From a virus: a stretch of 53,351 nt of DNA. Made by a program: the position numbers and the translations under genes. The DNA is taken from the UHGV virus genome UHGV-0304279. One strand, given 5' to 3'. Position 1 is the first letter of the stretch; each line of letters opens with the position of its first letter. The notes below the pieces were generated by a model that ran no database searches, was not told the DNA's origin, and worked only from the letters and a program-made list of their open reading frames with translations. Positions 4,901-18,669 of this stretch are shown here, piece by piece.

Positions 4901-6035
4901 CAAAGGAGAGATAGCACGCGTAGACAAAGCAATAGCAACAGAAACGCAGGCAAGAAGCGACGCAATAACAGAAGTTAAAGCTGATCTTACAACGCTTGAA
5001 AGTAATACAAATGCCAGTGTTAGCCGTCTCGATCAGGCCATCGCTGATGAGTCAAGCGCCCGCGCCCAGGCAATATCAGGAATCAGTGCGGAGCTTGGTC
5101 TTGTTGAAAATGAGGTTGATAAAAACAGCGACGAAATAGATCAGGCGAAAGCAAGTCTACAAAACGCTTCACTTGCTCTGATCAACAACTCAATAGCGCA
5201 AAGCAAAATGAGCACTGTTATTGAGGCAAAATACAGGAAAGGCCAGACAAAAACAAAAGCGGAAATAGCAAGGATCGACACCGCAATAGCAGACGAAACC
5301 CAGGCCCGCGCGGAGGCTATAGCATCGCTTGAGGCAAATATTAATGAAAACATTTCAGCAAAAATAACAGATATATCAACGGCGCTTGCAACTCACGAGG
5401 AATCAAGTGCTGAAAAATTTGTTCAAATATCGGCATCTTTCGACGATGTAAACTCAAGCATCACGGAATGGTCACAGGCTATGGCAACGGCAGACGAGGC
5501 ATTATCAACCAAAATTGATCAGCTAACAGTTACCGTTAACGGGAACACAACAGCTATCGAGACGACATCGAAAGCATTAACTGATTTCAAAGGTGACGTT
5601 AACGCATCATATTCAATCAAGATTGCCACTGATAACAACGGCATGAAATATGCCACTGGCATGTCGCTTGGCCTGACTGGTAGCGGGACTAACGTTCAAT
5701 CGCAGTGCATTTTCCTCGTTGACCGCTTCGTGTTAATGACCGCCGCAAACGGCACATATACAACGCCTTTCTATGTCACTGGCGGCGCAATGTATGTACG
5801 TGAAGCGTTTATTAAGGACGCATCAATCACTAACGCGAAAATAGGTTCTTACATCCAATCAAATAACTATGTTTCCGGCAGCACAGGCTGGAAACTTGAT
5901 AAATCCGGTACATTCGAAAACTACGGATCAGTAAGCGGTGAAGGGGCGATGAAGTGGACGAATACAACGATCTCTGTCAGAGATGGAAATAGCGTGTTAC
6001 GCGTCCAGATTGGGCGAATTACCGGATCATGGTAG
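1983..6035 (+). CDS. tail tip / host specificity protein J (central tail fibre), with long C-terminal coiled-coil extension
   Basis: N-terminal two thirds resemble lambda gpJ throughout (N-terminus, NPAW, YCDQ.V.DG.GG.EPR.T.NAY, FGCTSRGQA.RAG.WL motifs); 1350 aa; C-terminal part is heptad-rich with an internal duplication. Confidence 0.9.
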   Translation: MSSGGGKAKTPTLINDNLYHKQFYRVLDIISEGPIYGPVNTNAPLNSVMLNDTPVTDANGNTSIPGVSVAWRNGTADQSPINGFNAIESTVMVNAQVKHDTPLVRTVSDPNVTRVRLNIGVDSLVESDSQSNQKETSVIMAIDVKPSSSSTWSSIKAVQIGPGKISGEYLEAHIINAPDEKPFDIRVRRVTADSTSDLLQNDTRWNSYSEIIDDNLSYPHTAVAGAVIDHDQYTDTPTRTYHLRGLIVDVPDNYDPETRTYSGLWLGGMKQAYTNNPAWIFRYLVKNERFGLARHAGYIDVDDGALYTLSQYCDQLVDDGYGGLEPRVTLNAYITEQMSARDLLDNIAGMFRGIALWDGQRLTVMIDAPQDPIATITNANVVDGAFTRSSISRAECYNAVIVSWTDPENGWEQSKEYVADDELIARDGYNETTMEAFGCTSRGQAYRAGKWLIETAKREPSKFTFKMARDAIHFTPGDIIEILDNNRAGARLGGRIVANNGNVITVDKVDSEYITAGDTISLLDSDGKFKKHQITGISGNKITLAAAPAWIRNGTVFAVSTEAAKPVLCRITSVAETENNSVYTIEAAQHDPNKQAVVDEGAIFEINNDTLNHFRVPNIENLKVVNIGSETVQCRATWETQTTTHRMTFEIRIYNTDGAVVKSYETTKYSYDFYGIDAGAYSLGVRGRNDTGMKGAESIVDLVIGAPAAPVGVNWVPGVFQATVYPISKTTLTTDTSYEFYYAGENQITDPAIITTSAQFTGRGYQWTFGGMNTGHTYYVYVRTRNAFGVSDFVEASGKPTEDFDEITDYVTKDVMESEQFKEMISDIKDLGDRTDIVEGATEDLKIATEDLKADTDTLKKDTEDLYKKVEENADEIGKHEVRIDSLEVSSENVNNELAQTKASLQNASLALINNSLAQTNTRVTLTAQYKKGRNETKAQIDRIDNVIAEEKKATAESLETITAEISTMDSNIKGEIARVDKAIATETQARSDAITEVKADLTTLESNTNASVSRLDQAIADESSARAQAISGISAELGLVENEVDKNSDEIDQAKASLQNASLALINNSIAQSKMSTVIEAKYRKGQTKTKAEIARIDTAIADETQARAEAIASLEANINENISAKITDISTALATHEESSAEKFVQISASFDDVNSSITEWSQAMATADEALSTKIDQLTVTVNGNTTAIETTSKALTDFKGDVNASYSIKIATDNNGMKYATGMSLGLTGSGTNVQSQCIFLVDRFVLMTAANGTYTTPFYVTGGAMYVREAFIKDASITNAKIGSYIQSNNYVSGSTGWKLDKSGTFENYGSVSGEGAMKWTNTTISVRDGNSVLRVQIGRITGSW
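4686..5213 (+). repeat. internal direct duplication inside J coiled-coil region (copies about 4686-4729 and 5170-5213)
   Basis: Near-identical about 44 nt segments encoding KASLQNASLALINNS(L/I)AQ, each followed by a similar about 50 aa block. Confidence 0.7.
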
Positions 6036-9781: not shown

Positions 9782-9797
9782 AATGGGGGGGTGCAAC

Positions 9798-10988
9798 ATG
9801 CTTACGGACACCAGGTTAAGGACCATCGCCAACAAGCCATACGACGGCCCAGGCGAGATAGCTGATCGTGATGGCCTGTCAGCCAGGATAAGCCCAAAAG
9901 GGAAAATTACTTTCCAGTACCGTTACAGATTCAACGGTAAGCCAGTGCGAATGAAGATCGGCGAGTACGGGAAAATGAGTCTGAAAGACGCCCGCTACGC
10001 GGTGGCTGAATACAGGGAGTTGCTTACGAAAGGGAAGAATCCGGCACTGTGCGTAAAGCAGGCCATAGCCTTTGAGCAGGGCAAGCGATCTATATCCGAC
10101 GTAGTGGAAGACTATCTATCCCTGCCGAACGTCATTAAGCTGGTGGCATATAAAGAAGTCAAAAGCGCATTGATGCGCCACGTAGTCAACAAGTACGGCG
10201 ACTACATAGCTGACGACGTAACGACAAAACAGTGGATGGATATATTTGGCGAGATCACGAAGGCGGGGCACGCCGTTACGGCAGGTTTGATATTGAAGCG
10301 AATGAAAATCATCGTTAACAGCGCAATCAGGCGCGGGATAATGACTAACACAGCGATAAACAATATCCGTGTAGCTGACGTTGGCGAGCATTATGCTGTG
10401 GGTGAACGTTACCTATCATGCGAGGAAATAGGCCACTTCTGGCGTACTGTAGACAGTTCGCAGATCTATCCGCAGAACAAAATAGCCTTAAAGCTATTGT
10501 TGCTCACCGGGTGCAGGGTGGGAGAATTACAGAAAATGAGAAGGGAACACCTGGACCTGGACAACGGTGTGTGGACCGTTCCGGCGGCGGTGGCGAAGAC
10601 AAGAAGTGAAATCAGGCGGGGATTATCTGACTTGTCGATAAAAATGCTCAGGGAGGTGTTAGCCTCCCATGAGTATGATTATGTGTTCCCGCCAGTGATT
10701 AACGGCGGCAACAGGCCAGTAAACGCATCGGTGATAAAGGTTGCTGCAATCTTCGTGCGTAAAAGGATGGGCGGTAAATCATGGTCCTGTCACGACCTCC
10801 GCAGGACGTGCCGGACACACCTTTCGGCTATAGGTGTCCCAGTACATATTGCAGAAAAGATCTTAGGCCATTCATTAAGGGGAATACTGGCGGTGTACGA
10901 CAAATACGATTATCTTGACGAACAAAAGGAGGCACTAAATAAGTTTGCTGATTATGTATTATCTTTAGCTGACGTTAAACCAATCTGA
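9798..10988 (+). CDS. int: tyrosine integrase (P4-like)
   Basis: Catalytic motifs TGCRVGEL (Arg), HDLRRT (His-x-x-Arg), LGHS (His), AVYDKY (Tyr); N-terminal arm-binding-like domain; RBS GGGGG before ATG 9798. Confidence 0.9.
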   Translation: MLTDTRLRTIANKPYDGPGEIADRDGLSARISPKGKITFQYRYRFNGKPVRMKIGEYGKMSLKDARYAVAEYRELLTKGKNPALCVKQAIAFEQGKRSISDVVEDYLSLPNVIKLVAYKEVKSALMRHVVNKYGDYIADDVTTKQWMDIFGEITKAGHAVTAGLILKRMKIIVNSAIRRGIMTNTAINNIRVADVGEHYAVGERYLSCEEIGHFWRTVDSSQIYPQNKIALKLLLLTGCRVGELQKMRREHLDLDNGVWTVPAAVAKTRSEIRRGLSDLSIKMLREVLASHEYDYVFPPVINGGNRPVNASVIKVAAIFVRKRMGGKSWSCHDLRRTCRTHLSAIGVPVHIAEKILGHSLRGILAVYDKYDYLDEQKEALNKFADYVLSLADVKPI

Positions 10989-11182
10989 TCAAAGAACTGC
11001 ATCACGTCCTGATAGCGGTACATAACGCCACGCCCGGTCCCAAGTGCATCAACAGGGGCCGGAAATGGAGTGCCGTTCCGTTCCCACTTTTTACGCCATA
11101 AGTAAAATGTCCCCCTGCTAATTCCACCAAGCATCCGGCAGATGGCAGGGCGACTAAGAAGTATTGTTCCGGTTTTATCCAT
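10952..11182 (-). CDS. xis: excisionase / AlpA-like DNA-binding protein
   Basis: 76 aa, convergent with and overlapping the int 3' end; HTH-like segment ICRMLGGISRGTFYLWRKK; RBS GGGAGGT. Confidence 0.65.
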   Translation of the reverse strand: MDKTGTILLSRPAICRMLGGISRGTFYLWRKKWERNGTPFPAPVDALGTGRGVMYRYQDVMQFFDQIGLTSAKDNT

Positions 11183-11838
11183 TATTTACCTCCCGTGTAT
11201 TCAACGTGTCCGATACATCCATCAATAATAGCTTGCGCCATATTGCGATAATCGCACGAAAACTCATTGTCGCGGTCAAAGCAAATCTCTTTCGCTGCGT
11301 CTTCACCGATAACCTTAGTAGCCAGTGCGAACGCAATTTCAGCCAGTGCTTTTTCTTTCGGATCAACGTATAAAAAATAATTATAAAAACCCCATTCAAT
11401 AGCATTTTCTTTCAGTATGCTGCCTTTTTCAGTGTATACCCCGTATTTATCACCGATAAATTTAAACATTACAATCCCAATGAGATAGCCATCAGGATAA
11501 TAACACTCCAACCACACGCCGCACGGCGGCTTTTCTCCTGGTTTCCATTCCGTTACTTCCGGTTTATCGCAATCATGCCGCTCATCTTCGATTAATTCAT
11601 CAATGATTTCACTTTCTTTATTCATGCCATCATCATCTTTATTAGATAAATTAGCATATTTATCAAACTTCCAGCTTGCCGCCATAACAGAATAAGTGCC
11701 GCCAGTATCAGCGCGAACGCCAAAAAGGAAAGATGATCCATATTGGTATTCGCTGCGGTATGTAGCAACCTCAAAAGAAGGGTAAATTTCTGGATTTGTA
11801 CGATGGCGAATTATGCCAATTGCTTTAAGTTTGTTCAT
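11182..11838 (-). CDS. hypothetical protein (accessory, unknown function)
   Basis: 218 aa, RBS GAGGT; coupled to xis. Confidence 0.5.
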   Translation of the reverse strand: MNKLKAIGIIRHRTNPEIYPSFEVATYRSEYQYGSSFLFGVRADTGGTYSVMAASWKFDKYANLSNKDDDGMNKESEIIDELIEDERHDCDKPEVTEWKPGEKPPCGVWLECYYPDGYLIGIVMFKFIGDKYGVYTEKGSILKENAIEWGFYNYFLYVDPKEKALAEIAFALATKVIGEDAAKEICFDRDNEFSCDYRNMAQAIIDGCIGHVEYTGGK

Positions 11839-12045
11839 TTATTTTACCTCAATAATATTTCCGTTTTTGGTTGGAATAACTTTCCATTCATTAACAGGAA
11901 TAAAATATTCAGGATTATTTTCAATCTCATGTTTTAAATGTGCGTAACATATTCGCCATTCCATAGCCTTGTCGTTCAGGTAATAAACATCGTCACCATC
12001 AATCTGATACAAAATACCAGTAGGTTTTGCTTTATAAAATTTCAT
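11839..12045 (-). CDS. hypothetical protein
   Basis: 68 aa; start overlaps the ninB stop (TAATG). Confidence 0.4.
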   Translation of the reverse strand: MKFYKAKPTGILYQIDGDDVYYLNDKAMEWRICYAHLKHEIENNPEYFIPVNEWKVIPTKNGNIIEVK

Positions 12046-12476
12046 TATTGACCCCAGCGTTTTATGAATTCATCGTTTAATTTCGTGTCACCAGACCACT
12101 GAACACCATGTTCAGCGCCGAACGAATATATCAATTCGATTAGTTCGCTGAATTCTGATTTACTCATTCGACTGGTGGATGTTCCCAATACAACGAAGCC
12201 TGATTTATCCAGGTTGGGGACGACGCCATATTTCTTAAGCCCGGCAGTAAATACCGCTTTCCAGTCTTCCGGCGACAGCTTCTTGCCGTACCAATTAACC
12301 TGATCGCTAACGTCTGTTAGCAGCGCCCAAAACAATGCATTTTGGCTTAGCGAGCGGGTTTTCTCCTGAATGGTAATTATCAGCGGGCTTTTGCTATCAG
12401 GCTGGATCTCCCTTATCTGCCTGATAGCGTTTTCTTTTACTGCGTCGTTTACTATTTCAAATCTTATTTGCCTCAT
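12045..12476 (-). CDS. ninB: recombination protein NinB
   Basis: Resembles lambda NinB throughout (ITIQE..RSL.QN...WA.L.DVS.QV.W.G..L..E.WK.VFTA.LK...VVPNL...GFVV.G.STSRM). Confidence 0.8.
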   Translation of the reverse strand: MRQIRFEIVNDAVKENAIRQIREIQPDSKSPLIITIQEKTRSLSQNALFWALLTDVSDQVNWYGKKLSPEDWKAVFTAGLKKYGVVPNLDKSGFVVLGTSTSRMSKSEFSELIELIYSFGAEHGVQWSGDTKLNDEFIKRWGQ

Positions 12477-12670
12477 GATACACCATTACTATTTTTCCAT
12501 TGCGCCCGCGCATACATGATCGCCCATAAAGAAATTAGTCTTGAACTAGACATAAAATCGTTTTTAAGTTTTTTCATATCAATGACGACAGGGCGATCAG
12601 GATCATCTCCGCGCATGTATTCCGCAATCGTGCTCAGGTCTTCAACAGTTAAATCAAGTTCTTTATCCAT
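12473..12670 (-). CDS. hypothetical protein
   Basis: 65 aa; RBS GAGGTGAG; stop overlaps the ninB start. Confidence 0.4.
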   Translation of the reverse strand: MDKELDLTVEDLSTIAEYMRGDDPDRPVVIDMKKLKNDFMSSSRLISLWAIMYARAQWKNSNGVS

Positions 12671-12678
12671 AACTCACC

Positions 12679-12885
12679 TCACACAATGCGCATTGTGTTT
12701 CGTAATTCACCGCGCAGCGCCTGTAACGCTTCACGAATTGGAACAAAAACCCGTTTAAATTTTACGTGTCTGTACTTGCGCATAAGTGGAGGTGTATAAA
12801 CCATCGCGCCGCGAGAATCGCACGGGAAACGGAAATGTGATTCATCAATGAATGTTTCAACTGAATAAAAGATTACCCGTCTCAT
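12679..12885 (-). CDS. hypothetical protein
   Basis: 68 aa; coupled to the upstream gene. Confidence 0.35.
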   Translation of the reverse strand: MRRVIFYSVETFIDESHFRFPCDSRGAMVYTPPLMRKYRHVKFKRVFVPIREALQALRGELRNTMRIV

Positions 12886-13439
12886 AATTCTAACCCCGTT
12901 TCGCTGTTAAGTTTTTCGATTTCAAATACTGGTTTATCCGGCAGCAGGCCGTTTTTTCTCCGGTATTCGTTAAGGCGGCTGTCAAAATCAAACGCAAGAT
13001 CATTAGCGTGACCGAAGCGCCCAGGCTTAAACAGTGAGTAAAAATTAAGTCCGTGTTTATTGGTATCAATGCAAAGCGTTTCATCAAGGACCATTAAACG
13101 CAGAGTGCGAGAAAGATAATTCCACGGGATACCAGTTTCAGCGCTAATGTCACGCATACGTTTTTTGACGCTGTAGTCACTAAATAACGCCGCCACACGA
13201 TCACGACGTTGTGCATACAAATATTTAATCCGATACCCAAGCAAGCGGCGGCGCGGTCCGAAATATGTATAGACGCGCTCTACAATACCGCTATCTATTA
13301 AGTGTTTAATTGTCTCAGGCAAGCATCCTGCTTCGTCATATTCCGCTGATAATCCTGTTTTCTGGCGTAACTGCTGCATTGTGTCGATGCCATCCAGTTC
13401 AAGGATGTTGATAATTTTTGTTTCAAGTTCAATGCTCAT
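12882..13439 (-). CDS. hypothetical protein
   Basis: 185 aa from ATG 13439 with RBS GAGG; the track ORF extends to a GTG at 13475. Confidence 0.45.
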   Translation of the reverse strand: MSIELETKIINILELDGIDTMQQLRQKTGLSAEYDEAGCLPETIKHLIDSGIVERVYTYFGPRRRLLGYRIKYLYAQRRDRVAALFSDYSVKKRMRDISAETGIPWNYLSRTLRLMVLDETLCIDTNKHGLNFYSLFKPGRFGHANDLAFDFDSRLNEYRRKNGLLPDKPVFEIEKLNSETGLEL

Positions 13440-13518
13440 TGTTTTTAGCCTCAATTTAAGCGCGAAAACAGCCACCAGAAAGCGGTAAACTTTCCGGTAA
13501 GCCGTTTGCTCAAGTTAA

Positions 13519-14940
13519 TTAAAAAGATGCTTTATTCTGGTTGTTTCGTGGCGAGAATCGGCTTACCGCCGGACGTTGTTGCATTGACTGGATGCAAGCT
13601 GACGCCGCGCGGGCCTGGTCACACGGTAATATGTTGCCGTTGTCGTCAAAACGCTGGTAAACAGTCCCGGTTTTTCCGTGACGGTTTTTTGAAACGATAA
13701 TCTCCATGTATTCGCGTGCAACAGATTGTTCGTTGTAGTAGCCGTCGCGGTATACCATGATGATCCGGTCTGCGTCCTGTTCAAGATTGCCGGAATCGCG
13801 CAGATCAGAATTGTTCGGTCGCTTGTTCGGTCGTTCCTCGACGCGGCGGGATAATTGCGCCAGCGCCGCCACTGGTACGCGCAATTCTTTCGCCATCATT
13901 TTCAACGACCATGATAATTGCCCTACAGCGAGATCATGACGTTCGGCCTTAGCCAGCTTCATTAACCCGATGTAGTCAATCATTACCATACCCAGGTTAG
14001 GGTGATCCTGTTTCATTCGTTCGGCGGTGGCGCGTATTTCCTCGACCGTTAACTGTGATGCGTCAACAATCCATACTTCAAGATCAGCAAGTGCGCTCAT
14101 ACCCTGGGCTACGTGCGCCCATCCTTCATCATCAAGTTTTACCGGGTTACGCAGGCAATCAGTTGATAAGTTCCCAGCGCCAGCTATAGCGCGTTCGGTC
14201 ATTTGATCAAGCGACATTTCAAGCGTAAAGAGCAAAACACCGACCCGCTGGCCTTCGCCGCCAGGGTAGGGGCGTTCAGCCGCCGAGCGGGCTATTGCTA
14301 ACGCTAACGCTGATTTGCCAGACCCAGGACGTCCGGCGATAAGCACAAGATCAGTGGCGTTAATGCCGCCTAACATTTCGTCGAGTGGTTCTATCCCTGT
14401 TTTTATGTTGTCAGAATTGACACCGCATTCCATGCGCTTACTTAAAACTTCCGTGTACTCCTGTACTGCGTCGCGCAACAGTACCGGAAGGATCTTGTCT
14501 TTCGTTACCTTTAATTTTGAATACCGGGAATCAAAATCCTTCATCGTCTCCTTGACAACCTCAAGCGTCCCCGTTTCCAGCTTGTAGCGAACGTCTTCCA
14601 TTAGCTCCAGCATTTGCCGCCGCTGGTGTTCTTCCTGTAGTAGCTGCGCGTACCCTTTCAGGTTGGCAGCAGAAGGACACGATCGCGCCGTTTGCATTAG
14701 CGGTATGAAATTTTCGTTACCGATTTCATCACCAACCAATAACGCGTCGATAAGATTTCTGTTTCTGGCTTGCGCCCTGATGATTTCGAACGCGCGCCTG
14801 TACAGAGGAATAGTGAATACATCAGGATCGAGTGTAGCAAGAACATCTTGCGCGTTAGGAGTAAGCCCGCCTAACAGGAGGCCACCTATAACAGCCGCTT
14901 CGCGCTCCTGCCGCAATGAGTTTACTTGCTCAGTTATCAT
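13519..14940 (-). CDS. replicative DNA helicase (DnaB family)
   Basis: Walker A GRPGSGKS, DnaB-like N-terminal domain, RecA-like core; RBS GAGGT. Confidence 0.9.
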   Translation of the reverse strand: MITEQVNSLRQEREAAVIGGLLLGGLTPNAQDVLATLDPDVFTIPLYRRAFEIIRAQARNRNLIDALLVGDEIGNENFIPLMQTARSCPSAANLKGYAQLLQEEHQRRQMLELMEDVRYKLETGTLEVVKETMKDFDSRYSKLKVTKDKILPVLLRDAVQEYTEVLSKRMECGVNSDNIKTGIEPLDEMLGGINATDLVLIAGRPGSGKSALALAIARSAAERPYPGGEGQRVGVLLFTLEMSLDQMTERAIAGAGNLSTDCLRNPVKLDDEGWAHVAQGMSALADLEVWIVDASQLTVEEIRATAERMKQDHPNLGMVMIDYIGLMKLAKAERHDLAVGQLSWSLKMMAKELRVPVAALAQLSRRVEERPNKRPNNSDLRDSGNLEQDADRIIMVYRDGYYNEQSVAREYMEIIVSKNRHGKTGTVYQRFDDNGNILPCDQARAASACIQSMQQRPAVSRFSPRNNQNKASF

Positions 14941-14958
14941 TATGGCATTACCTCATGT

Positions 14959-16077
14959 TTACAAAATGGAATATTCAGGGTAATAAACAAAGCGCCCAAT
15001 TTCTCCATGAGCCGGGCTGTAAATAATCACCGCCGCCAGCCGCCGTGAACGCCAGCCGCCATTCGTCGAGTAAGCATCTTTGCCAGCTAACGTTCCGTGA
15101 TACTCGACAACGCCTAACGATGATTCAATCAGCCGCTGGTGATGCCAGTGTCCGCAATGAGCGTAAACCGACGACGATTTACCGAAATCCTCCCGCCAGT
15201 CAGAAACACAGGCAGCAAGTAAGGTTTCTGGTTTTTTGATGGTGTGTCCGTGGTGGTAAGCAAGGAATGTTTTTCCGTATTGTGTGTGGTGGACGATAGC
15301 AGGGGACACATCAACCGTTACGCGCGGTTCATCTTCGTAAAAAGCCGCCAGCGCCGCACGTAGCCAAATCATCCCCGACTGATCGTGATTGCCGGATAAC
15401 ACCTGGATCTCGACGCCCTTATGGTTTAACAACATTTTCCCCACCGCACGCCGGACCGACCGGATCGCCACATAAACAAGTTTTGCGTAGCGTGAATCGC
15501 AATCTAAGACGTGATTACTTGATGGCGTCACTGGTAATAGCCCGTCCGTGTGAAGCACATCACCGCCGAGAAGCAATACAGCTTTTTCAGACGTTGGTGC
15601 AGCGCCTACAGCGTAGTCAAAGAAGTCATTTAACACGCGTTCAGCGATCCCGGTGTCGTAGCTTTCTCCGCATTCAGCTTTATGCGCAAGCGCCCCGATA
15701 TGCAGATCGAATACCGGATAAAGGGCCAGGCTTTTCTGAAAATCAATTTCCGGCACTGGCACGGCTTCCGCGCGCGGCATTTCTTCCGTAAATGCGTCAC
15801 AAGCTGCCTGCATTAGCCTTTCCATTTCCTCACGGTCACGGGCCGTTTTAATCCAGCGCATGATTACATTGCCATCTTTATCAACGAGCAATGATTCACC
15901 ATTGACACCAAAACCCGGCGCGCGGCGCGTGGATATTAAACCGCGTTTCGCCAGCCGTGCGCCCAGGCGCTCGACGTTGCGTTTTGCCATGCCGTACTTC
16001 TCAGCGATCTGTTTATACGTCAGGCCGCTGTTATGTTCAGCGATTAATTCCTCATCGCTGATCTTTCTTTGTGACAT
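14959..16077 (-). CDS. HTH domain fused to calcineurin-like metallophosphoesterase (SbcD/Mre11-type motifs)
   Basis: N-terminal LTYKQIAEKYGMAKRNVERL HTH; phosphoesterase motifs DLHIG, GGDVLH, GNHD, GHWHH; ATG at 16077 with RBS GAGGA. Confidence 0.6.
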   Translation of the reverse strand: MSQRKISDEELIAEHNSGLTYKQIAEKYGMAKRNVERLGARLAKRGLISTRRAPGFGVNGESLLVDKDGNVIMRWIKTARDREEMERLMQAACDAFTEEMPRAEAVPVPEIDFQKSLALYPVFDLHIGALAHKAECGESYDTGIAERVLNDFFDYAVGAAPTSEKAVLLLGGDVLHTDGLLPVTPSSNHVLDCDSRYAKLVYVAIRSVRRAVGKMLLNHKGVEIQVLSGNHDQSGMIWLRAALAAFYEDEPRVTVDVSPAIVHHTQYGKTFLAYHHGHTIKKPETLLAACVSDWREDFGKSSSVYAHCGHWHHQRLIESSLGVVEYHGTLAGKDAYSTNGGWRSRRLAAVIIYSPAHGEIGRFVYYPEYSIL

Positions 16078-16206
16078 AACGTTATTCCTCATGTTTACAG
16101 AATGTATATTTATTTTCCGTAAAACGCGCTACAACGCAAAATCCCACCGCGTAACCCACTTGTAAGAGTGCAGTGTCTTTCTTGCGTCAGAGGCGCTATC
16201 AGGTGG

Positions 16207-16567: not shown

Positions 16568-17560
16568 TCAAAGAGCGCCAGCGCGGGTGTCGCGTAGCGT
16601 TTTTGGTTTTAGTAAGAAATCTAGTGTCGCAGTGAAGCCATTGCCGAAGTAAAAATCTGAGGCCGTATTTTTGAACGCTTCGAAGTAGCTGATAAAGCCT
16701 TTGATGCTTTTATCTTTCAGGTAGTCAGAGAACGCATAAATTTTACGTTCCAGATCCCGATCAAGTTCAGCAGGTGGTAACAGGCCATCAAACGTGCTGT
16801 TAAATGCTTCCACTACGTCGGCGGCGTTTACAGTAGCTGATAGCTTGCGCCATTGTTCAGCATCAGCCAGATACCCATCGAATTTAGTTACCCGGCAAAT
16901 GTTAATAGGCTTAGGCACTCCACCACGACTACGCCATTGAGTCAAAGCCCATTCAATTACTAATGTGATCTCATCCTCCGTATATGCCTTACGTGTTTTT
17001 GTTTCTGTCAGTAGTTCGATAAATGGTTTTGCGTCACGACATTTGCATCCTGCCTTGTCGTTGTAGAAGGCTAGGCAACGCAATGCTGCCAAATTAGCCG
17101 CCTGATCTTCTTCGCTAATAGGCCCGTCTTTTTCCAATACACGGAGTGTATTGTTTTTAATGTTCTCTTTACTGGTTATATATGACTGATTAGGGTGTCT
17201 CTCTGACACTACCCCCGGTGTCACAGTGACACTACCCTGGTGTCTCTCTGACACTACCCCCGGTGTCTCTCTGACACTACCCTGTAATGATGGTAAGACG
17301 ATTACATAGAAGTTACTTGTTTGCTCTTTTCCTCCTATTAGATATCGAGGTTGCTTAATCAATAACCCTTTCTCACAAAGAGCATCAATAGCCCGCATAG
17401 CTGTGCTTTTGCCTATTTCGCATTGCTTTGCTATGTGCTGGTAAGAAGGGTAACATTCGCCGTTATCGTTAGCGTTATCAGCCAACTTTAACAGCACAAG
17501 TTTGTGCATTGGGTTGCCGACTTCAGTATGAAAGACTTCAACCATTAGCCGCATACTCAT
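16568..17560 (-). CDS. replication initiator (lambda O-like) with internal origin
   Basis: N-terminal winged-helix segment (YPSYQHIAKQCEIGKSTAMRAIDALCEKGLL); iterons embedded in the coding sequence as in lambda ori; ATG 17560 with RBS GGAGG. Confidence 0.7.
   Translation of the reverse strand: MSMRLMVEVFHTEVGNPMHKLVLLKLADNANDNGECYPSYQHIAKQCEIGKSTAMRAIDALCEKGLLIKQPRYLIGGKEQTSNFYVIVLPSLQGSVRETPGVVSERHQGSVTVTPGVVSERHPNQSYITSKENIKNNTLRVLEKDGPISEEDQAANLAALRCLAFYNDKAGCKCRDAKPFIELLTETKTRKAYTEDEITLVIEWALTQWRSRGGVPKPINICRVTKFDGYLADAEQWRKLSATVNAADVVEAFNSTFDGLLPPAELDRDLERKIYAFSDYLKDKSIKGFISYFEAFKNTASDFYFGNGFTATLDFLLKPKTLRDTRAGAL
17194..17283 (+). repeat. origin of replication iterons (four copies of about 22 bp)
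   Basis: Four tandem copies of GGTGTC(TCTCT/ACAGT)GACACTACCC(C/T), each with inverted repeat GTGTC..GACAC, inside the initiator gene. Confidence 0.75.
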
Positions 17561-17782
17561 AAACATTGGCCTCCTATGGTTAAAATGAACGCGCGGGCGG
17601 GTATCCAATTAGCATTAGATAGCGGTGAGTGACCGCTTAACAGATCCCGCCGTTGCGTGATATTTGTCTTTCGCTTCGCAGCGACACCGGATTTTTAAAG
17701 AGCATGAGGTATGCGCCTTTTTGTGCTATTCCGTTATCTTTTTTCTTGCGTCTTTGCAACTATGGCCTTACCTTGTCTGCAA

Positions 17783-17840
17783 GTTTACAGAATGGAGTTT
17801 TTAGATCAAGACTTGAAAAATACATTTTGTGACTTGTATC
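17783..17840 (+). promoter_or_regulatory. candidate promoter/operator region upstream of the repressor gene
   Basis: Motif copies GTTTACAGAATGG (17783) and TACATTTTGTGAC (17821); -35-like TTGAAA (17811-17816) and -10-like TATCAA (17835-17840). Confidence 0.35.
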
Positions 17841-17868
17841 AAACTTTTTGAGGTTATAGGGTAGCGAC

Positions 17869-18516
17869 ATGAAAACAAAATGGTATGACTTAGCAAAGCA
17901 GCTCATGCGAGCGCAAGGCATGAGCCAGGATTCACTCGCGGATCTCATGGGGATAACTAAAGGCGGCCTGTCACACTGGCTTAACGGTCGCCGCGAGCCA
18001 AATCTTGAAGATATTGCGCGGATTATGCGGGCACTTGGTCGTCGGCAGTTCACTGTTACCCATGATGGAATGGTCATTGATGATTCTGTTTCTAACACGT
18101 TACCGGGAGCGCCGCAGCGTGATTTAGGCAGTTACCCGGTTGTTGACTGGAAGGACACAGTAAACAATATGGAAGATACAAGGCGATCAACATTACCACA
18201 CGTTACGACTAGCGTTATTTGTTCAGATGATAGTTACTGGCTGGTTGCTAAAGGTGAATCAATGAACGCGCCGCAGGGGTTGAGCATCCCTGCCGGGACG
18301 ATGATACTTGTTGACCCACACGCGCCAGCTATCGATGGAAAGCTGGTTATAGCACAGCTTGAGGAAGGGCAAATACCGACGTTTAAACAGTTGATTATTG
18401 ATGGAGGTCAAAGGCTTTTACGTTCGCTTAACCCGCTGTATCCACCAATCCCCATGAATCCTGAATCGAAAATCATAGGCGTGGTGGTGGACGCGAAGAT
18501 CGTAAACCTGCCATAA
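17869..18516 (+). CDS. CI-like repressor (HTH XRE plus S24 LexA-like peptidase domain)
   Basis: N-terminal HTH (SQDSLADLMGITKGGLSHWLNGRR); C-terminal S24-like segment with GESM and a later Lys; 215 aa. Confidence 0.8.
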   Translation: MKTKWYDLAKQLMRAQGMSQDSLADLMGITKGGLSHWLNGRREPNLEDIARIMRALGRRQFTVTHDGMVIDDSVSNTLPGAPQRDLGSYPVVDWKDTVNNMEDTRRSTLPHVTTSVICSDDSYWLVAKGESMNAPQGLSIPAGTMILVDPHAPAIDGKLVIAQLEEGQIPTFKQLIIDGGQRLLRSLNPLYPPIPMNPESKIIGVVVDAKIVNLP

Positions 18517-18547: not shown

Positions 18548-18626
18548 GCCCTGAAAACACCAAAACGTAAACATAAAACGTGTTTTATTATTTAAATATC
18601 AATGACATATAAAATATTTTAAAAAA

Positions 18627-18669
18627 GTATACAAAATGGATTGACTCGGTGTATCACGGGGCGTATATT
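18627..18669 (+). promoter_or_regulatory. candidate sigma70 promoter of the rightward operon with upstream motif copy
   Basis: -35 TTGACT (18641-18646), 17 bp spacer, -10 TATATT (18664-18669); motif GTATACAAAATGG immediately upstream. Confidence 0.5.

Follow-up and report, generated by a model that had tools for sequence, protein, structure and literature searches.

A conserved gene block between the helicase and xis genes of an mEpimmI-type coliphage as a probable core module of its leftward early operon

The stretch of viral DNA analysed here (the window: UHGV virus genome UHGV-0304279, 53,351 bp) carries a cluster of genes that is probably the promoter-distal half of a leftward early operon and a fixed core module of its phage group, not cargo. 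The window belongs to the mEpimmI (mEp021-like) group of temperate coliphages, whose genomes measure 53-55 kb. Its first 25 kb are 82-88% identical to mEp021, mEp515, mEp010 and MagusPhagus over 48-57% of that length, and three more group members match a smaller share of it. In the cluster region, DNA identity is 82-86% to mEp021, mEp554, mEp010 and related phages and 94% to the prophage of E. coli MS 21-1, with the annotated gene order being the same. The locus is an ordinary one, and its genes have already been deposited as hypothetical proteins. Phages of this group are reported to equal lambdoid phages in frequency in one human gut coliphage collection (PMC11893012). The genes and sites of the locus are as follows:

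9783-10988, plus strand: tyrosine integrase, 401 aa (ORF; annotated as integrase in relatives)
10952-11182, minus strand: xis-like small HTH protein, 76 aa (Pfam HTH_23, E = 2e-6; phrog_4745 DNA-binding protein, E = 7e-11)
11182-11838, minus strand: p218, a modular orphan protein, 218 aa
11839-12045, minus strand: p68a, 68 aa (ORF listing)
12045-12476, minus strand: NinB/Orf recombination mediator, 143 aa (Pfam PF05772)
12473-12670, minus strand: p65, small acidic protein, 65 aa (phrog_21123, function unknown)
12679-12885, minus strand: p68b, small basic protein, 68 aa, pI 10.9
12882-13439, minus strand: p185, predicted tandem winged-helix protein, 185 aa from ATG
13440-13518, minus strand: conserved 79-nt DnaB/p185 spacer that includes a stable hairpin with its core at 13472-13500, as well as the ribosome-binding site of p185
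13519-14940, minus strand: DnaB-type replicative helicase, 473 aa (Pfam DnaB_C, E = 4e-76; DnaB N-terminal domain, E = 8e-12; phrog_19, E = 4e-109)
17869-18516, divergent: candidate CI-like repressor, 215-aa ORF (in the position of the annotated cI repressor of relatives)

The open reading frames and the sequence agree with the preliminary description, which had placed six minus-strand genes between helicase and xis; the DnaB gene forms the upstream boundary of this cluster. The xis-like gene is the final gene of the leftward operon, and the integrase gene, whose product shares 98% identity with its MS 21-1 prophage counterpart, converges on it, the two genes sharing 37 nt at the 3' end of xis. 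The operon runs in the order p346 (initiator), p377, DnaB, p185, p68b, p65, NinB, p68a, p218 and xis. The homologue of p346 is annotated as "DNA replication protein O" in mEp554 and as "putative replication protein" in mEp021, and four iterons are located within the p346 gene, at 17194-17283. Transcription would begin beside the CI-like repressor gene, cross the O-like initiator gene with its origin iterons, and then pass through p377, DnaB and each of the following genes down to xis. From gene order and coupling only, we infer a single transcript for the whole operon, which would link replication, recombination and excision through a single message under repressor control. By analogy with published mEp021 work, antitermination of this transcript may be N-like (Gp17). 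In the mEpimmI group, nutL adjoins the repressor gene, and the region has been assigned to a cluster of replication/recombination genes (Negrete-Mendez et al. 2025, PMC11893012); the supplements of that paper cover none of the cluster genes.

As read from the sequence, p185 and p68b overlap by 4 nt in an ATGA, a gap of 8 nt that includes GAGGTGAG separates p68b from p65, and p65 and NinB again share an ATGA. NinB and p68a overlap in a TAATG, the TAA of p68a is followed at once by the ATG of p218, and p218 and xis overlap in another TAATG. Stop/start overlaps of this kind indicate that the proteins are produced by translational coupling, and the ATGA and TAATG junctions support the earlier statement that several of the genes are coupled by overlapping stop and start codons. 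This layout is retained with minor differences across 44 related loci. The p185/p68b overlap is kept in 41 of them, and the -1 overlap of p218 and xis in 37 of the 42 that include xis, while the least constant spacing is that between p68a and p218 (0 to +15 nt in most).

In the preliminary description, the cluster was read as an integrase-proximal region of the kind that holds accessory, exclusion or anti-defence genes. It does adjoin the integrase gene, but it forms the distal end of a leftward replication operon, and the suggested hypervariability of gene content is contradicted by the relatives: the order dnaB-p185-p68b-p65-ninB-p68a-p218-xis is found in all 44 related loci, with near-identical junctions. 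Only four of these loci carry an inserted gene, three at the p65|ninB junction and one at the ninB|p68a junction. The genes inserted at these NinB-flanking sites encode a methyltransferase, a BRO-N protein, an HNH endonuclease and a Rha-like protein, and both hot spots are empty in the window. In one further locus (L048), a Rha-like gene stands in the place of p68a. Every gene compared across relatives has a pN/pS between 0.07 and 0.43, with a ratio of mean pN to mean pS of 0.42 for p185 and p218. Being a fixed and selected core, the five genes other than ninB are candidates for essential or near-essential early functions.

These five genes are AT-rich relative to dnaB and ninB (GC3 0.25-0.42 versus 0.53 for dnaB), which fits lineage-specific genes and is not evidence for an anti-defence function. 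No paralogy was found among the operon's own proteins; a match between p65 and DnaB (E = 0.003) was taken as chance, as it covers 24 residues and the search space was tiny. Both p218 and p68a occur as several alleles among relatives. AT-richness and a large number of alleles, as in p218, are traits also found in host-interaction and accessory genes.

The same integrase-to-helicase order and the same coupling junctions are shared by genes mEp021_02 to mEp021_09 of mEp021 (MH706966) and by other mEpimmI phages and prophages. The cluster proteins are 60-95% identical to their orthologues in mEp021 and other mEpimmI members, all of which are annotated as hypothetical except NinB, helicase and integrase. 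A methyltransferase gene lies between p65 and NinB in mEp021, whereas the window is without it.

In phage λ, the nin region separates the replication genes from the late regulator Q, and its terminators are removed by the nin deletion. Similar to the λ ren-nin region (ren, ninA to ninI) and the P22 nin region, the window cluster consists of short genes that overlap and are for the most part uncharacterised, placed immediately after the replication genes and, as in a nin-type block, these small genes include ninB, the only gene homologous between the cluster and λ nin. The λ-type nin region belongs to an early operon reliant on an N-type antiterminator, and the window cluster would do so as well. 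In contrast to λ nin, which ends in Q, the window cluster is transcribed in the direction of xis and int, with xis as its last gene. Moreover, the single candidate for a λ-type terminator in the window cluster is one terminator-like hairpin. The layout corresponds to a λ ren-nin region joined straight to xis.

The hairpin in the dnaB/p185 spacer has an RNA MFE of -28.6 kcal/mol (z = -3.87) and was terminator-like in a consensus scan. In 17 distinct relatives, its stem is near-invariant and its loop variable, with no compensatory changes. Such a structure could end or attenuate transcription; as a proven terminator it is not established, given the lack of covariation and the annotation of mEp554, in which the terminators are ARNold predictions and none is placed at this position. 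A search of the cluster against Rfam gave no match.

Among the cluster proteins, NinB is the one with a clear identity. It matches Pfam PF05772 (E = 7e-47; bit score 158.9, cut-off 23.8; alignment to positions 4-131 of the 131-position model), phrog_72 (E = 1e-44) and the solved λ Orf, PDB 1PC6 (E = 5e-45), and it is 53% identical to λ NinB over its full length (142 aligned aa). These matches establish, at the level of sequence, its homology to the Orf-type mediator; by analogy with λ Orf, it may aid recombinase loading onto SSB-coated single-stranded DNA. For the five other proteins, no significant match was obtained in Pfam, NCBIfam or PADLOC (the best PADLOC E-values on the cluster genes, 0.029 and 0.047, are noise), and the only PHROG matches below 1e-6 were phrog_1687 (p185) and phrog_21123 (p65), neither of them informative. 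In this respect, the view that five of the six genes have no recognisable function is confirmed, and the alternative named alongside it, that they are ordinary replication or recombination accessory proteins, found no homology in its favour; nor was homology to Ren or, in these four libraries, to defence or anti-defence proteins found for any of the five. When each was compared by tblastn with 50,697 phage records, matches came from seven mEpimmI phages only, plus Serratia phage Eta in the case of p65.

The most elaborate of these proteins is p218. Its AF2 model (pTM 0.45), built like that of p185 on a shallow alignment (19-22 sequences), predicts a beta domain (residues 1-64), an SH3-like beta barrel that occurs in many allelic types (residues 97-156) and a conserved helical domain (residues 160-205). 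Residues 65-91 form an acidic, disordered and invariant linker, DDDGMNKESEIIDELIEDER, with a pN of 0.018 and a pS of 0.37 at residues 69-83. The middle domain exists in at least nine types at the 80% identity level, which recombine freely with N-terminal and C-terminal types; 17 domain combinations were counted among 34 alleles, the window pairing an N-terminal domain of type A with a middle domain of type F. Both the linker and the middle barrel are missing from a natural form of 127 aa. Phage L043 is near-identical to the window and differs from it mainly in p68a and the p218 middle domain. The middle type is weakly associated with the types of p185, p65, p68a, p68b, xis and the DnaB tail (AMI at most 0.19). 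Of the whole locus, only this cassette polymorphism is mildly novel. Within the core module, p218 would be a modular adaptor, its invariant acidic peptide probably touching a conserved target and its exchangeable middle barrel probably setting specificity.

An exhaustive HMMER profile search of 1.84 billion representatives returned nine matches to p218, all of them the family itself or its fragments. The 22 members of its alignment gave only noise against PHROGs and Pfam, and Foldseek comparison of the model with BFVD gave TM-scores of at most 0.28 and no whole-protein match. SH3-like small barrels, such as those of Sm/Hfq, KOW and Tudor proteins and the WYL domains of BrxR/CapW/PafBC, scored weakly and have no sequence similarity to p218, whose architecture (barrel, acidic linker, barrel, helical domain) is unlike that of any of these proteins.

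It could be proposed that p218, perhaps with p68a, is a counter-defence or host-interaction protein whose barrel tracks a variable target, the rest of the cluster serving as backbone. The free recombination of the middle types and the place of the L043 differences fit this proposal, as do the restriction of the p218 family to the mEpimmI group, the GC3 of p218 and p68a (0.25-0.35) and the insertion of moron-type genes (methyltransferase, BRO-N, Rha-like, HNH) right beside them in relatives. We nevertheless consider it unlikely, as all related loci examined contain p218, neither protein has a PADLOC, Pfam or PHROG link to defence or anti-defence families, and no promoter within the cluster was detected that would drive expression in the lysogen. 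Selection points the same way: the middle domain is under purifying selection within types (dN/dS 0.21), and between types pS is saturated (0.73), so the alleles are old, and ongoing positive selection on this domain is unsupported. A bolder version, to which we give even less credence, is that p218 is a new modular effector, in which DDDGMNKESEIIDELIEDER would bind a conserved machine of the host or the phage and the swappable barrel would pick a variable target, e.g., a host defence or exclusion factor.

The fixed core module also contains p185, for which two winged-helix domains in tandem are predicted (WH1, residues 1-71; WH2, residues ~72-136), followed by a near-invariant C-terminal tail of 30 aa, LNEYRKNNGLLPDKPVFEIEKLNxETGLEL. 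An alternative GTG start at 13475 would give a protein of 197 aa. It matches phrog_1687, "MarR family" (E = 9e-8), while no MarR model was matched in Pfam or NCBIfam and no Pfam MarR, ArsR or SelB model reached threshold; the best Pfam matches, AbiEi_4 (E = 0.02) and HTH_24 (E = 0.09), are both under cut-off. Profiles of p185 and p218 found nothing below E = 0.2 among PDB sequences, and a scan of GTDB species-representative genomes with p185 yielded no confirmed locus. Its likeness to SelB WH3-WH4 (PDB 1WSU) and to MarR/ArsR regulators lies in the fold only (identity 11-15%), and its conserved tail is absent from SelB, MarR and ArsR proteins. The predicted fold suggests that p185 binds nucleic acid, and the invariant tail probably docks a conserved partner.

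The small λ protein Ren is encoded just after the replication genes and guards against Rex-type exclusion. The gene for p185 occupies the matching position, directly after the helicase/loader gene, and a weak match to phrog_142, "Ren-like exclusion protein" (E = 5e-4), occurs in 8 of the 19 members of its family. That p185 is the counterpart of Ren is, however, very improbable: no single stretch of the phrog_142 match is significant by itself, the alignment spans no more than a generic stretch of winged helix, and p185 is twice the length of Ren, with two winged-helix domains and a tail. Homology was rejected on an hhalign probability of 3% and the absence of any BLASTP alignment.

The products of the three smallest genes, all conserved, may act as subunits or regulators. 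Within the cluster, p68a diverges most; it is very AT-rich (GC 0.30) and is confined to mEpimmI phages among the 50,697 phage records; its product has 68 aa in the window and the MS 21-1 prophage and 58 aa in most relatives. For p65, which matches phrog_21123 with E = 8e-11, the sole homologue outside the group is that of Serratia phage Eta (48% identical). No family match was found for p68b in Pfam, NCBIfam, PHROGs or PADLOC, and in its 29 clusters, every one with a source name comes from E. coli or an E. coli phage. All these small ORFs are under purifying selection, with mean pN/mean pS across relatives of 0.23 (p68a), 0.25 (p68b) and 0.26 (p65) at a substantial synonymous divergence (pS 0.38-0.53), and such low ratios mark them as real genes, not chance. 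The idea that these frames (65, 68 and 68 aa) arose by chance or are spacer without coding function, which their shortness and a sole family match to one PHROG of unknown function might suggest, is scarcely tenable, as they retain their reading frame, length and junctions across some 40 loci and are annotated as CDS in independent records.

Half of the mEpimmI early operon consists of genes of no assigned function. Position beside the integrase gene alone does not mark an accessory island; the insertion hot spots here are the ninB-flanking junctions. The invariant tail of p185, as well as the invariant acidic peptide and swappable barrel of p218, provide experimental handles. If the effector role tentatively considered for p218 were true, the last gene before xis would be a specificity-switching determinant of counter-defence or host takeover in mEpimmI phages.

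Six minus-strand genes lie between xis and the DnaB helicase gene, exactly as the preliminary description had them when compared with the ORF table and the sequence (p names give product length in amino acids):

10952-11182, minus strand, xis-like gene
11182-11838, minus strand, p218
11839-12045, minus strand, p68a
12045-12476, minus strand, NinB
12473-12670, minus strand, p65
12679-12885, minus strand, p68b
12882-13439, minus strand, p185
13519-14940, minus strand, DnaB helicase

Five of the six were said to have no recognisable function, and p185, p68b, p65, p68a and p218 indeed received no assignment from Pfam, NCBIfam or PADLOC. The 143-aa gene is, on homology, unambiguously NinB, with a match to Pfam PF05772 (E = 7e-47), 53% identity to lambda NinB and a match to PDB 1PC6. 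The proposed coupling through stop/start overlaps is borne out at four junctions, with ATGA at p185/p68b and p65/NinB and TAATG at NinB/p68a and p218/xis. At p68a/p218, TAA is followed by ATG without a gap, and the 8-nt gap between p68b and p65 contains a GAGGTGAG ribosome-binding site.

An accessory or anti-defence role, suggested for the whole cluster, found no support. The cluster is the distal end of an early replication/recombination operon, as judged from the gene string that begins at the repressor and from the published nutL position and Gp17 antiterminator of the phage group. The leftward string starts beside the divergent CI-like repressor gene (17869-18516) and comprises p346, p77, p377, DnaB, the six cluster genes and xis. 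In this string, p77 is a small winged-helix protein, p377 belongs to phrog_704, and p346 is an O-like initiator whose own gene holds four iterons of ~22 nt at 17194-17283. That region is built from a 45-nt repeat in two tandem copies. The resulting four units follow the pattern GGTGTCTCTCTGACACTACCC and contain an internal inverted repeat each; by analogy with lambda O, the region is probably a replication origin inside the initiator gene. In mEpimmI phages, which a 2025 publication presents as Nus-dependent temperate coliphages outside the lambdoid group, nutL adjoins the repressor gene and Gp17 is the N-like antiterminator (PMC11893012). A 19-mer related to CATGTTTACAAAATGGAAT occurs five times in the window (14954-14972, 16090-16108, 17780-17798, 17868-17886 and 18624-18642; 79-100% identity), three times around the repressor gene and twice at the p377 and dnaB starts; with at most 3 mismatches, 2 copies were counted versus 0.03 expected. 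These may be operator-like sites.

The positional counterpart in lambda is the ren-nin region; however, ren-nin runs to Q, whereas the cluster runs into xis. Nor does the cluster form an island of the lambda b-region kind. The int (plus) and xis (minus) genes converge, their 3' ends overlapping by 37 nt at 10952-10988, and therefore leftward early transcription would enter int antisense. Annotation of mEp554 puts the first minus-strand terminator past the 5' end of int.

The mEpimmI genomes agree with the 53,351-bp window in gene order and size. DNA identity of the region is 82-86% to mEp021, mEp554, mEp044, mEp010, mEp515, mEp013 and MagusPhagus and 94% to a prophage of E. coli MS 21-1, and it has matches in 35 complete E. 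coli genomes out of 5,426. It is these phages that make up the mEpimmI group. The cluster genes are already in public records, where they carry no functional annotation.

Relatives were compared using 41 IMG/VR loci, obtained via p218 alignment, and three annotated records. The order dnaB-p185-p68b-p65-ninB-p68a-p218-xis is constant in 44/44 loci, so the hypervariability proposed as a check was not found in gene content, and the cluster is an ordinary conserved module. Spacing is -4 at p185/p68b in 41/44 loci, +8 to +15 at p68b/p65 with two exceptions, -1 or +2 at ninB/p68a, and -1 at p218/xis in 37 of 42 xis-containing loci; p65 and ninB, where no gene is inserted, overlap by -4 to -20 with one exception (+11). 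Inserted genes among the 44 loci are limited to the two junctions flanking ninB, which are insertion hot spots in relatives and are both empty in the window. The p65|ninB junction holds a DNA methyltransferase in mEp021 and locus L007, as two alleles, and a BRO-N gene in MS 21-1; ninB|p68a holds an HNH-AP2 homing-type endonuclease in L027. In a further contig, L048, a 68-aa product with a Phage_pRha match lies upstream of NinB, and p68a is replaced by a gene for a 246-aa protein whose N-terminus is Rha-like.

Mean pN/mean pS (Nei-Gojobori, 26-41 distinct alleles per gene) was 0.07 for dnaB, 0.09 for ninB, 0.25 for p68b, 0.26 for p65, 0.23 for p68a, about 0.43 for p185, and 0.42 for both p218 and xis. 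Because of these low ratios, the small ORFs are taken as real genes. The genes of unassigned function are rich in AT (GC3 0.25-0.42 vs 0.53 for dnaB); p68a has a GC of 30% and a GC3 of 0.25 against a window mean GC of 46%. Both p68a and p68b (pI 10.9) are confined to the mEpimmI group. The 68-aa form of p68a occurs in the window and MS 21-1 and a 58-aa form in most relatives, the two diverging after residue 52. p65 belongs to phrog_21123, labelled as function unknown; its one homologue outside the group, in Serratia phage Eta, closes the early region, directly before terS.

The 79-nt dnaB-p185 spacer (13440-13518, minus) folds into a stable hairpin (core 13472-13500; MFE -28.6 kcal/mol, z = -3.87), which is terminator-like in a consensus scan. 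A comparison of 17 distinct relatives showed an almost invariant stem, a variable loop and no covariation. No terminator is annotated at this position in mEp554, and Rfam gave no family match. The hairpin may attenuate transcription or act on RNA. Beside it, the last ~15-25 residues of DnaB (13519-13570) exist as two types, found in 18 and 26 loci and independent of p185 type and p218 middle type.

p185 is limited to mEpimmI phages among 50,697 phage records and was not found in GTDB species-representative genomes. A weak PHROG hit to Ren was rejected (hhalign probability 3%, no BLASTP alignment). The two allelic types of p185 share only ~35% identity, and their last 30 residues are almost identical. 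Since pS in this tail is low (~0.20) as well as pN (0.024-0.027), its conservation may partly be DNA-level or mark a recombination boundary.

The p218 family is strikingly mosaic. The AF2 model (pLDDT 73.5, pTM 0.45) predicts a beta domain (residues 1-64), an acidic disordered linker (65-91), a second beta barrel (97-156) and a helical domain (160-205). At 80% identity, there are 4 N-terminal, 1 linker, 9 middle-barrel and 4 C-terminal types, in 17 combinations among 34 alleles, and middle type is weakly associated with neighbouring variable segments (AMI <=0.19). Linker residues 69-83 (pN 0.018, pS 0.37) are under strong protein-level constraint. Barrel pN reaches 0.33-0.45; current positive selection is not supported, given purifying selection within types (dN/dS 0.21) and saturated synonymous sites between them (pS 0.73). 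The barrel types are old alleles that recombination has shuffled. Locus L043 (IMG/VR contig 3300045988_046788) has at least 97% identity to the window from 18852 to ~12254, then ~55% in p68a, 47-56% in the p218 barrel and 91-94% in xis-int, a pattern pointing to a recombination breakpoint at ~12254, within the 3' portion of ninB. L048, otherwise a typical mEpimmI-like 53-kb contig, encodes a natural 127-aa variant (5254-5637, protein P0151) in which the N-terminal beta domain joins the C-terminal helical domain directly; because it omits both linker and barrel, these form an optional module. That p218 alone has an accessory or anti-defence role is unlikely.

The order of the genes, how their junctions couple, their conservation in relatives, the homology of NinB and the predicted folds are established. 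Beyond these, the cluster would be co-transcribed from a repressor-controlled leftward promoter under Gp17 antitermination, and its proteins translated in a coupled, stoichiometric manner. p185 may bind nucleic acid and dock a partner through its tail, and p218 may serve as an adaptor that joins a conserved acidic contact peptide to an exchangeable specificity barrel.
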